Source: Eledone cirrhosa (Eukaryota). From it: DNA of 64,000 nt. The DNA lies in assembly GCA_964016885.1 (NCBI GenBank), contig OZ024741.1, positions 328,662,001 through 328,726,000 of the forward strand, in the 5' to 3' direction. A program made the translations under genes and the position numbers. Every line of letters begins with the position of its first letter. The first letter of the stretch is position 1. This document shows, piece by piece, positions 10,107 to 14,939 of the stretch. The notes under the pieces are model-generated. The model had not been told where the DNA came from. It saw only the letters and a list, made by a program, of their open reading frames with translations, and did no database searches.

Positions 10107-13100
10107 TGAAACAAAATGAAAACGAAATTTCATTTCTCACTCTTAGTATGGCACTTACTTAAATGTAAGTATGCATGTATACGTACATACATATATGTAT
10201 ACAGACGTACAGTAGCATGCACATATATATATATATATACATATATACATACATATGCATACAGGTACACATACATATATGCACGTATCAGTTTAGCGGC
10301 GCTAACGTCGCTTTGTTCGTTTGTAAACAAACTGAACAGCCTGAATTTATGCCATACGGTGTTAAGGCAACCACGTCACCTTTTTGTTCAACACTGACAC
10401 AGGAACGATGTACTAGTTTCAAGCTTGTTAGCTATCATCAGCACCGTTTACCCATCTGCCAGATAGTTGAACGTTCGAAAGTATATACTTTCCTTATGAA
10501 AATTAACGGCTGAGCAGCCTAATTTGCATATTGAGTGAGTTAAATCGGTCAGGCATACCGAAAACGATAAATTGAAACAAAATGAAAACGAAATTTCATT
10601 TCTCACTCTTAGTATGGCACTTACTTAAATGTAAGTATGCATGTATACGTACATACATATATGTATACAGACGTACAGTAGCATGCACATATATATATAT
10701 ATATACATATATACATACATATGCATACAGGTACACATACATATATGCACGTATCAGTTTAGCGGCGCTAACGTCGCTTTGTTCGTTTGTAAACAAACTG
10801 AACAGCCTGAATTTATGCCATACGGTGTTAAGGCAACCACGTCACCTTTTTGTTCAACACTGACACAGGAACGATGTACTAGTTTCAAGCTTGTTAGCTA
10901 TCATCAGCACCGTTTACCCATCTGCCAGATAGTTGAACGTTCGAAAGTATATACTTTCCTTATGAAAATTAACGGCTGAGCAGCCTAATTTGCATATTGA
11001 GTGAGTTAAATCGGTCAGGCATACCGAAAACGATAAATTGAAACAAAATGAAAACGAAATTTCATTTCTCACTCTTAGTATGGCACTTACTTAAATGTAA
11101 GTATGCATGTATACGTACATACATATATGTATACAGACGTACAGTAGCATGCACATATATATATATATATACATATATACATACATATGCATACAGGTAC
11201 ACATACATATATGCACGTATCAGTTTAGCGGCGCTAACGTCGCTTTGTTCGTTTGTAAACAAACTGAACAGCCTGAATTTATGCCATACGGTGTTAAGGC
11301 AACCACGTCACCTTTTTGTTCAACACTGACACAGGAACGATGTACTAGTTTCAAGCTTGTTAGCTATCATCAGCACCGTTTACCCATCTGCCAGATAGTT
11401 GAACGTTCGAAAGTATATACTTTCCTTATGAAAATTAACGGCTGAGCAGCCTAATTTGCATATTGAGTGAGTTAAATCGGTCAGGCATACCGAAAACGAT
11501 AAATTGAAACAAAATGAAAACGAAATTTCATTTCTCACTCTTAGTATGGCACTTACTTAAATGTAAGTATGCATGTATACGTACATACATATATGTATAC
11601 AGACGTACAGTAGCATGCACATATATATATATATATACATATATACATACATATGCATACAGGTACACATACATATATGCACGTATCAGTTTAGCGGCGC
11701 TAACGTCGCTTTGTTCGTTTGTAAACAAACTGAACAGCCTGAATTTATGCCATACGGTGTTAAGGCAACCACGTCACCTTTTTGTTCAACACTGACACAG
11801 GAACGATGTACTAGTTTCAAGCTTGTTAGCTATCATCAGCACCGTTTACCCATCTGCCAGATAGTTGAACGTTCGAAAGTATATACTTTCCTTATGAAAA
11901 TTAACGGCTGAGCAGCCTAATTTGCATATTGAGTGAGTTAAATCGGTCAGGCATACCGAAAACGATAAATTGAAACAAAATGAAAACGAAATTTCATTTC
12001 TCACTCTTAGTATGGCACTTACTTAAATGTAAGTATGCATGTATACGTACATACATATATGTATACAGACGTACAGTAGCATGCACATATATATATATAT
12101 ATACATATATACATACATATGCATACAGGTACACATACATATATGCACGTATCAGTTTAGCGGCGCTAACGTCGCTTTGTTCGTTTGTAAACAAACTGAA
12201 CAGCCTGAATTTATGCCATACGGTGTTAAGGCAACCACGTCACCTTTTTGTTCAACACTGACACAGGAACGATGTACTAGTTTCAAGCTTGTTAGCTATC
12301 ATCAGCACCGTTTACCCATCTGCCAGATAGTTGAACGTTCGAAAGTATATACTTTCCTTATGAAAATTAACGGCTGAGCAGCCTAATTTGCATATTGAGT
12401 GAGTTAAATCGGTCAGGCATACCGAAAACGATAAATTGAAACAAAATGAAAACGAAATTTCATTTCTCACTCTTAGTATGGCACTTACTTAAATGTAAGT
12501 ATGCATGTATACGTACATACATATATGTATACAGACGTACAGTAGCATGCACATATATATATATATATACATATATACATACATATGCATACAGGTACAC
12601 ATACATATATGCACGTATCAGTTTAGCGGCGCTAACGTCGCTTTGTTCGTTTGTAAACAAACTGAACAGCCTGAATTTATGCCATACGGTGTTAAGGCAA
12701 CCACGTCACCTTTTTGTTCAACACTGACACAGGAACGATGTACTAGTTTCAAGCTTGTTAGCTATCATCAGCACCGTTTACCCATCTGCCAGATAGTTGA
12801 ACGTTCGAAAGTATATACTTTCCTTATGAAAATTAACGGCTGAGCAGCCTAATTTGCATATTGAGTGAGTTAAATCGGTCAGGCATACCGAAAACGATAA
12901 ATTGAAACAAAATGAAAACGAAATTTCATTTCTCACTCTTAGTATGGCACTTACTTAAATGTAAGTATGCATGTATACGTACATACATATATGTATACAG
13001 ACGTACAGTAGCATGCACATATATATATATATATACATATATACATACATATGCATACAGGTACACATACATATATGCACGTATCAGTTTAGCGGCGCTA

Positions 13101-13612
13101 ACGTCGCTTTGTTCGTTTGTAAACAAACTGAACAGCCTGAATTTATGCCATACGGTGTTAAGGCAACCACGTCACCTTTTTGTTCAACACTGACACAGGA
13201 ACGATGTACTAGTTTCAAGCTTGTTAGCTATCATCAGCACCGTTTACCCATCTGCCAGATAGTTGAACGTTCGAAAGTATATACTTTCCTTATGAAAATT
13301 AACGGCTGAGCAGCCTAATTTGCATATTGAGTGAGTTAAATCGGTCAGGCATACCGAAAACGATAAATTGAAACAAAATGAAAACGAAATTTCATTTCTC
13401 ACTCTTAGTATGGCACTTACTTAAATGTAAGTATGCATGTATACGTACATACATATATGTATACAGACGTACAGTAGCATGCACATATATATATATATAT
13501 ACATATATACATACATATGCATACAGGTACACATACATATATGCACGTATCAGTTTAGCGGCGCTAACGTCGCTTTGTTCGTTTGTAAACAAACTGAACA
13601 GCCTGAATTTAT
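10107..13612 (-). repeat. Tandem array of 7.5 x 466-bp units, one hammerhead per unit (non-LTR retrozyme-like)
   Basis: Identical ORF translations recur every 466 bp (10116, 10582, 11048, ..., 13378); HHR on the minus strand of each full unit; flanked by (TA)n; inverted segments at 13612-13903. Confidence 0.9.
10404..10448 (-). ncRNA. Minimal type I HHR, array copy 1 (others at 10870-10914, 11336-11380, 11802-11846, 12268-12312, 12734-12778, 13200-13244)
   Basis: rc: aacggtg-CTGATGA-t-agct-aaca-agct-t-GAAA-ctag-TA-catcgtt; 7-bp stem I, palindromic actagt stem III, GUA triplet; predicted cut between 10411 and 10410. Confidence 0.85.
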
Positions 13613-14939
13613 ATATATGTGCATGCTACTGTACGTCTGTATACATATATGTATGTACGTATACATGCATACTTACATTTATATATATATGTATATATAT
13701 ATAAATTGAAACAAAATGAAAACGAAATTTCATTTCTCACTCTTACAAACGAACAAAGCGACGTTAGCGCCGCTAAACTGATACGTGCATATATGTATGT
13801 GTACCTGTATGCATATGTATGTATATATGTATATATATATATGTGCATGCTACTGTACGTCTGTATACATATATGTATGTACGTATACATGCATACTTAC
13901 ATTTATATATATATATATATATATATATATATATATATATATATATATATATATATATATATATATATATGTATATATATATATATATATATATATATAT
14001 ATATATATATATATATATATATATATATATATATATATATATATGTATATATATATATATATATATATATATATATATATATATACATAGGAGGAAGTTA
14101 TAGTTCACTTGAAGCATTGTGTAATGAGGTATAATCGTTTGTATATGTATAATAAAGCCAAAACAATGCACACTTGGCAAGCTATTTAGAACACTGGTTT
14201 AAACGCTTTACTTCCCTCCGAAGAAGAGATATTATCTTGAAAATTAAGGACATTTAAATAAATCTAAGGTAAAAGACTAATTGTCAACAATATCTTTTGC
14301 ATTTGCATTCTCTATTCTATGTCCATACCTGCATTGTTTTGGCTTTATTATACATATACAAACGTTTATATATATCTATATATATATATATATATATATA
14401 TATATATATATATATATATATATATATATATATATATATATATATATATATATATATATATATATATTAGGATGGCCTTAGCAATAGGTAATTTTCCGAA
14501 AGTTAAAATGTTGCTGCTTCCACGCACTAATATTGTGTCAATTAACATAAAAATGGGGTGTGCAAAATTTCAGCTCAATCGGATAACTGTTAGGCGACCC
14601 TCAAACGCATTGAAGTTGGAACATAGTATAAGCAACGATTAATTCTGTTCAAAAGCGGTATTCTGTTCCCTAACTCGACCATTTTCTTTTTTCTTCTTAG
14701 AGAAATTTATGTGGACACATCCAGGCAACCCCAGCAAATGATTAAAAATGTTCTGAATCAAATTTACCAATAGTTAATTTGATAAATTCCTGAAATAACA
14801 TGAACAATTTAAGAAATATTAGGTTTTCTTAAGAAAGCAGACAACTTCTATAAGAGAAACGCATTTTTATTTACAACAATAATTTCTATAGAATCAAAAA
14901 CATAACGTGAACACTGAATACTGAATATTGAACAATGTT

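Follow-up and report, generated by a model that had tools for sequence, protein, structure and literature searches.

A young 466-bp hammerhead retrozyme family in Eledone cirrhosa whose insertions bear the marks of Penelope-like elements

We have found that a 466-bp tandem repeat in the genome of Eledone cirrhosa is a new animal retrozyme family of the kind without long terminal repeats (non-LTR), that it is young and present in high copy number, and that it is almost certainly moved by a Penelope-like element (PLE). The starting point was a stretch of 64,000 nt, referred to here as the window (contig OZ024741.1 of assembly GCA_964016885.1, positions 328,662,001 to 328,726,000), which holds an array of this unit with hammerhead ribozyme motifs on the minus strand. 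We consider it probable that the retrozyme RNA is cut, likely often becomes a 466-nt circle, and is copied into (TA)n tracts by a PLE acting in trans. An earlier note on this stretch had proposed a retrozyme but had not recognised the family, and no description of it turned up in the literature we searched, although repeat databases or preprint supplements could hold one; the kind of element is already published (PMC7229834; bioRxiv 10.64898/2026.07.22.740005).

The evidence that this is a mobile family, counted by exact patterns in the 3.0-Gb genome, comes from 10,122 exact matches of a 40-mer from the ribozyme (a control gave 0), 1,562 neighbouring ribozyme pairs spaced exactly 466 bp, and 1,201 exact junctions between the long end of the unit, described below, and (TA)n. 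The insertions are dispersed and vary in unit number; the genome-wide search suggested earlier, for dispersed arrays of variable copy number in (TA)n, thus found them, and the identity of the repeat as a retrozyme is upheld. A sister family with a stronger helix II has 7,983 ribozyme pattern matches, a spacing of 466-468 bp and arrays of up to 31 units, while a third, distant family has 1,315 matches, mostly single, so that the three families together hold more than 19,000 ribozyme copies. The stretch is also represented in six public sequencing runs labelled with four organisms, all without an RNA label, and an independent public run (X2) contains 5,077 contigs with many variants of the unit; such contigs are uninformative on ends, strand or level. 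We note that the 31-unit sister array (C1:5,738,327-5,752,443; L231, L232) has quasi-periodic variants, that other sister loci are L135 and L233-L242, and that one sister insertion (L160) ends in (CAT)n rather than (TA)n. The third family (L105, L325-L344) has a different hammerhead, an octamer-like element often repeated every 33 bp, and a short end, TTACATTTA, identical to that of the main family.

The case for a PLE rests on where the insertions end. We number the RNA from the first base 3' of the predicted hammerhead cut, and we mapped ends in all 50 loci among the first 100 listed 40-mer matches and in 21 long arrays, the latter selected for exact 466 spacing and hence biased to young arrays. 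Leaving out ends inside the TA core, outer ends fell at RNA 242-252 (the short end) or 298-311 (the long end) in 77 of 85 cases (49 loci) in the first set and in 36 of 36 (21 loci) in the second, where about 9% would be expected by chance. Every simple head-to-head locus combines one long with one short end (25/25 and 12/12, or 37/37, with four loci with extra copies set aside), in keeping with the PLE-type inverted 5' ends that had been pointed out before, and the sister family does the same in 10/10, at 303 and 229-234. There are therefore two 3' end sites, lying in (TA)n about 60 nt apart in the main family, about 70 in the sister and about 35 in the third. Circular permutation of the ends, as random priming on a circle would give, was rejected, the ends being fixed at two sites. 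Fold-back is disfavoured by the fact that either of the two arms can be the longer one, which points to priming from both strands instead. The insertions have fixed 3' ends, a tail at one end, random 5' truncation and an inverted 5' copy, all marks of PLE-mobilised elements, and the PLE families of this genome show the same end pattern. An optional PLE tail on one end only has been described (PMC8557442), and in vitro a PLE uses two internal start sites and cuts and extends both target strands (PMC11167929); the two end types match the PLE tail and such two-site priming. Mobilisation by a PLE in trans, proposed in the earlier note, is supported by insertion anatomy across the genome.

The array in the window is a clear example of this anatomy. 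Identity at period 466 spans exactly 10107-13612 (3,506 bp, 7.52 copies), with 0 differences between its 7 full units, which confirms the 7.5 essentially identical units counted before. This main arm runs head-to-tail on the minus strand from a 5' end at RNA 61 to a 3' end at RNA 304, a long end. A check for target-site duplication found (TA)n on both sides, as had been noted, with tracts at 9920-10106 on the 3' side of the main arm and at 13904-14089 on the far side. Inverted fragments had been placed at 13612-13903; we find an inverted second arm at 13613-13681 (plus strand, RNA 183-251), which stops at the short end in (TA)n, whereas the remainder, preceded by a 22-nt TA tract, reads as a separate small head-to-head insertion at 13701-13905, made of a long-end arm (RNA 310 to 266) and, joined to it, a short-end arm (RNA 85 to 251). 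The two parts are best read as two insertion events. The unit contains the tail segment between the two preferred 3' end sites (RNA 249-310; 10567-10628 in the second unit, minus strand) and a TA-rich quasi-palindromic core (RNA about 120-235; 10642-10757, minus strand), which is predicted to form a long hairpin and differs in length among arrays. The unit is below 50% GC, has no LTR structure and is non-coding, the only frame being a stop-to-stop one resembling a simple sequence repeat on the opposite strand. The TA tracts around the array are insertion hot spots common to several repeats, and TA-flanked repeats with inverted ends lie nearby (7938-8394 versus 14049-14413; 9864-9919 versus 14467-14523 and 16620-16728). 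Elsewhere in the window, an RTE-like fragment of a long interspersed nuclear element (LINE) with a 297-aa open frame occupies 32282-33175.

Each full unit carries a type I hammerhead on the minus strand, seven in all, with CUGAUGA at 10441+466k (k=0-6). The first lies at 10394-10462 and comprises distal and proximal stem I, CUGAUGA, stem II, GAAA and ACUAGU, arranged as AACGGUG CUGAUGA UAGCUAACAAGCUU GAAA CUAG UA / CAUCGUU. Proximal stem I has 7 bp (AACGGUG/CAUCGUU), GAAA is followed by the palindromic ACUAGU, and the predicted cut after GUA falls between 10411 and 10410, recurring at +466k; the CUGAUGA and GAAA boxes, 7-bp stem I, ACUAGU and cut site given in the earlier note were all found. 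Stem II reads U-AGCU-AACA-AGCU-U, with 4 bp, an AACA loop and a U.U at its base, and stem I does not stop at a UA bulge but continues in distal helices, which show covariation. The earlier assignment to the minimal type I class therefore stands for type I but not for minimal, and we likewise rejected a minimal PLE-type hammerhead, defined by a reduced helix II and no extended stem I (compare PMC7229834), helix II having 4-5 bp and distal stem I co-varying. Among 8 natural copies of the main and sister families, 94% of cells in the hammerhead stems are paired and 8/22 pairs are changed on both sides; the covariation score was matched by 0/500 shuffles, and slid controls were 31-48% paired. These compensatory changes come mostly from one family split among related sequences and so represent few independent events, but they indicate that the fold is conserved and under selection. 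Because a search of the whole window against Rfam at gathering score gave 0 matches, the ribozyme call rests on motif, structure and covariation, and we describe the motif as a canonical-like hammerhead with a weak helix III, a predicted ribozyme. In the sister family, a G-C replaces the U.U at the base of helix II. Outside the ribozyme, 24/93 predicted pairs in the unit show double changes, and T57C and A262G, partners in a predicted long-range helix, co-occur in 21/23 loci having either, as one lineage event. We also note at least five further type I hammerhead families, seen at window +1950, +31983 and +63063 and at many loci, in several of which helix II has a U.U or A.A base and helix III is palindromic (ACGCGU, AUAUAU).

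What the enzyme copied can be read in part from variants. In 10 loci we found 19 variants that are private to their locus and present in all segments covering the site, 11 of these being fixed across both orientations, and young arrays have both arms fixed for G32T (L081), A336T (L078, L089) or G288A with A108G (L090). In the sister family, L233/234 has 22 identical segments. Differences within an array are mostly confined to single units. Variants fixed across units and in both arms imply that the array passed through a single unit and that both arms were copied from one haplotype, and the simplest template is one monomer, likely circular, that was re-read several times. At one locus (L306), 5/5 junctions lack the 7 nt immediately before the cut, as would a trimmed and ligated monomer; we treat this as one good case and not as a statistic. 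Rolling-circle copying, as the earlier note had it, is supported indirectly by the clonal arrays and L306, with the amendment that there are two fixed internal starts and that linear cut RNAs were apparently used too.

A second indication comes from 5' ends, tallied for 70 of the first 100 listed of the 1,201 long-end junctions, sampled irrespective of the ribozyme. We coded 70 long arms and 42 second arms by hand, with 6 long arms censored at locus edges and second arms with unclear ends omitted. The cut is crossed by 59 of the 112 arms, and twice or more by 27. Arm 5' ends pile up just inside it, with 29 in RNA 1-72 versus 5 in 395-466 (rate ratio 5.0, p=1e-4) and versus 77 in 73-466 (ratio 2.2, p=6e-4), and stops at 1-72 fall from 23/82 in the first pass to 6/69 in later passes (p=0.003), the zone 1-72 having been picked after inspection of the data. 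This pile-up fits a mix of linear RNAs that start at the cut and templates that lack such an end, and may be taken as an indirect footprint of cleavage; a structural pause might also account for it.

The unit is predicted to contain a promoter. A 12-mer, TATGCAAATTAG, at RNA 347-358 (10519-10530, minus strand, repeated at +466k) matches an element at -77 to -79 of the genome's U6 genes and is kept in the main and sister families, with TATGCAAATCAG in the third; a TATA-like box (10482-10487, minus strand) follows 43 nt past it. Among seven U6 loci viewed, three have the element at -77 to -79 with a TATA near -30 and in two more it is displaced by an insertion, while it is absent from 5/5 U2 loci; the background of the 12-mer is 4 in 661,610 nt. 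Transcription is predicted to start near RNA 417-421, at the 5' arm of the ribozyme, and T4 runs lie at the long end, at 289-316 (in the sister a T5 at 297-301), where some transcripts may terminate. In two families the promoter block is also predicted to be able to fold as a hairpin. We think it somewhat probable that a U6-type promoter precedes the ribozyme in each unit, a feature that we did not find described for retrozymes in the literature searched. Three points pull the other way: the element and TATA are 43, 44 and 46 nt apart in the main, sister and third families (the last two by eye) versus 47-49 in U6; 0 of the 112 coded arms end at the predicted start; and the T4 runs could stop polymerase III. 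In this genome the U6 and U2 genes form tandem clusters at C19:31.78-31.84 Mb and C3:307.35-307.45 Mb, the two kinds of gene appear to have dissimilar upstream elements, and the TATA region of some U6 copies is interrupted by an insertion.

Two young autonomous PLE families with intact tandem copies and ends in (TA)n are available as candidate mobilisers. Family (a) has 784-aa open reading frames (ORFs) in a 3,531-bp tandem, with DKT, CxCx5C and no CCHH, the marks of the Hydra clade; family (b) has ORFs of about 1,280 aa with a Neptune/Nematis-like linker (a clade assignment by motif only). Pfam reported RVT_1 in a family of the window, (c), and nothing in (a) or (b). The main family forms TA-free direct junctions with (a) at L033, L049, L086 and L076, and so does the sister with (b) at L135; all of these composites pair a long with a short end. 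We tentatively regard the young Hydra-clade family (a) as the leading candidate, at somewhat under even chances. It is only a lead, because further PLE-like families have 5' junctions with the unit too (in one case, L067, long with long) and because (a) is very abundant. Also telling against it, blastn and nhmmer comparisons of the unit with (a), (b) and (c) found no homology beyond simple repeats and nested copies. A pLTR-derived retrozyme, in the sense of the 2026 preprint, is not supported, the unit having no homology to the termini of the three PLE families compared, and no autonomous element with the short-end motif was found in the examined loci. Tandems of (a) lie at C1:437,198,719-437,213,199 and C1:91.47-91.49 Mb (L152, L153, L157), with relatives in the window at 9269-9663 (-), 42338-42957 (-), 49352-49948 (+) and 58816-59591 (+). 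Family (b), whose 3' non-coding part contains a hammerhead and whose tail, about 58 nt long, lies within the ORF start, occurs at C1:301.39 Mb, C6:65.20-65.22 Mb (L154-L156) and window 31143-32190, with a diverged relative at 56651-57763. Between TA tracts, at 50983-55805, lies a head-to-head Penelope/Poseidon-like insertion that has a tail of about 42 nt and frames for reverse transcriptase and GIY-YIG.

Taken together, these observations suggest the following cycle. The U6-like promoter in each unit would start a transcript at the 5' arm of the ribozyme, and some transcripts would read into the next unit. The hammerheads, probably dimerising through ACUAGU, would release monomers, some of which would be ligated while others stayed linear. 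The genomic pattern suggests that both strands of a TA tract would be primed, one at RNA about 310 and the other at about 250, and that extension of both would follow one RNA haplotype and go through 0 to 15 rounds. In the genome the two copies meet 5'-to-5', mostly sharing a few bases at the joint, and a single arm leaves a plain 5'-truncated copy. A bolder version, in which three families of ribozyme-bearing circular-RNA parasites captured a host U6 promoter and a dimeric Hydra-clade PLE copies one 466-nt circle from both nicked strands at two fixed sites, strikes us as doubtful. If it were true, the genome would keep direct footprints of cleavage and ligation in the cell and of rolling-circle retrotransposition, and the mobiliser of a retrozyme would be named.

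Several observations weigh against the cycle. The minimum-energy fold of the RNA is not the hammerhead (-19.7 versus -9.6 kcal/mol; z -1.7 and -1.1), and folding alone, given also the Rfam result, is thus no evidence for it; the U.U at the base of helix II and a helix III of 1-2 bp are weak points in the ribozyme. The arms were coded by hand reading. Junction deletions longer than 1 nt are rare and not significant, with 3 loci in which each deletion touches the cut and 3 more loci in a control window, and a pattern count of such deletions (20 matches versus 32 in the control window) is uninformative beyond L306. Mosaic or periodic arrays (L070/071, L072, L088 and sister L231/232) could not come from a single monomer circle, and point to some multimer templates or later growth at the DNA level. 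Elsewhere, 8/9 Xenopus retrozyme dimers were uncleaved in vitro (bioRxiv 10.64898/2026.07.22.740005), and an anole PLE used uncut RNA, its hammerhead being dispensable (PMC11167929).

In one alternative, PLE two-site priming occurs on uncut or partly cut linear read-through multimers from donor arrays, and any circles that form do not serve as template. The anole enzyme mainly used uncut RNA in vitro (PMC11167929), helices II and III are weak, 6 arms stop near the cut after at least one pass, and among the periodic and mosaic arrays is a 3-unit pattern common to both arms of L070/071. Read-through without a one-unit bottleneck, however, cannot fix a new variant in every unit, as the private variants fixed in whole arrays and both arms would require; nor does a linear multimer sit well with the 22 identical segments of L233/234 or with a cut-site deletion repeated five times at L306, and the chance of a stop near the cut drops after the first pass where it would need to stay constant. 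We therefore consider this alternative unlikely. We give still less credence to the idea that insertions of one or two units grew later as minisatellites, by slippage or unequal exchange. Growth at the DNA level has been proposed for retrozymes (bioRxiv 10.64898/2026.07.22.740005) and would suit the nested, quasi-periodic variants of the longest arrays (L231/232, L070/071, L072), but older arrays (L042, L065, L066) carry mostly single-unit mutations on a fixed background, which indicates little turnover, and very young arrays, with 0-2 differences in a set biased to young arrays, already have 7-12 units, some in both arms.

That the mobiliser is a LINE such as RTE, with the element as a passenger resembling a short interspersed nuclear element, is very improbable: RTE-like fragments do occur in the window (32282-33175) and beside a few copies, but the two fixed ends paired as long and short, the lack of a poly(A) or tandem 3' tail and the multi-unit arms in both directions speak for a PLE, as do the PLE families of this genome, whose ends show the pattern too. 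It is scarcely credible that faulty assembly expanded a repeat of 1-2 units into this array, as its seven 100% identical units might suggest, given that other arrays have their own variants and unit counts, that junctions are biologically patterned and that the unit appears with many variants in the independent run X2.

We favour the cycle set out above, in which a PLE copies cut and often circular retrozyme RNA, and it matters for what retrozymes have left to explain. Retrozyme circles are abundant in animals, whereas the circle as template, the retroelement that copies it and its transcription have so far been proposals. Here the insertions are so recent and so many that they record steps of the life cycle, and since the RNA and two priming sites are defined and both a promoter and an intact enzyme are at hand as candidates, that cycle becomes testable in vitro.

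The Eledone family shares with the metazoan non-LTR retrozymes, for which PLEs were proposed as mobilisers, non-coding low-GC tandems, a single type I hammerhead in each unit, copies in the thousands and the lack of an LTR; the published families also lack a primer-binding site and a polypurine tract (PMC7229834). Its 466 bp slightly exceed their range of 150-450 bp, and its ribozyme unites weak points known singly from axolotl, where helix III of HHR_Amex1 is 1 bp long and carries a palindromic tetraloop and helix II of HHR_Amex2 has a U.U base; the axolotl retrozymes cleave better as dimers. Circles have been demonstrated for the metazoan retrozymes and are predicted for the present family. 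Fixed two-site ends, long and short twin arms that are clonal, and a U6-like element are Eledone features not described in the parts of PMC7229834 considered, nor found for retrozymes in the rest of the literature searched, a scope outside which repeat databases and supplements lie. Vertebrate retrozymes have been concluded to be non-autonomous PLE passengers, with units of 51-972 bp, most families having at most 7 units; there the link to PLEs is terminus homology and co-occurrence, here it is insertion anatomy, and no mollusc is named among the 35 genomes in the parts of that preprint considered (bioRxiv 10.64898/2026.07.22.740005). In giant squid, 235 hammerhead loci have been reported without such detail (PMC6962438).

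Like PLEs themselves, the Eledone element shows partial tandems, an inverted 5'-truncated copy, a tail at one end, (TA)n targets (as in Hydra and Naiad) and ends that fit two-site priming, and it resembles the non-autonomous multicopy head-to-tail Chlamys elements such as MRC1; it differs in having no ORF, a tail of about 60 nt versus 30-40 bp, and a hammerhead, unlike most Chlamys and Naiad elements (PMC8557442, PMC11167929). Unlike PLE systems, it has no 3' homology to an autonomous partner among the three PLE families compared. In its predicted promoter it recalls two older cases, schistosome Sm-alpha and newt satellite 2, whose tandem hammerhead repeats bring their own promoter, placed ahead of the ribozyme, an order that makes at least two units necessary (PMC6765202, PMC2220036). 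Sm-alpha is reported to have a polymerase III promoter and the newt satellite a polymerase II promoter of the small nuclear RNA type, whereas the Eledone match is to the U6 upstream element with a TATA-like box, and not to U2.

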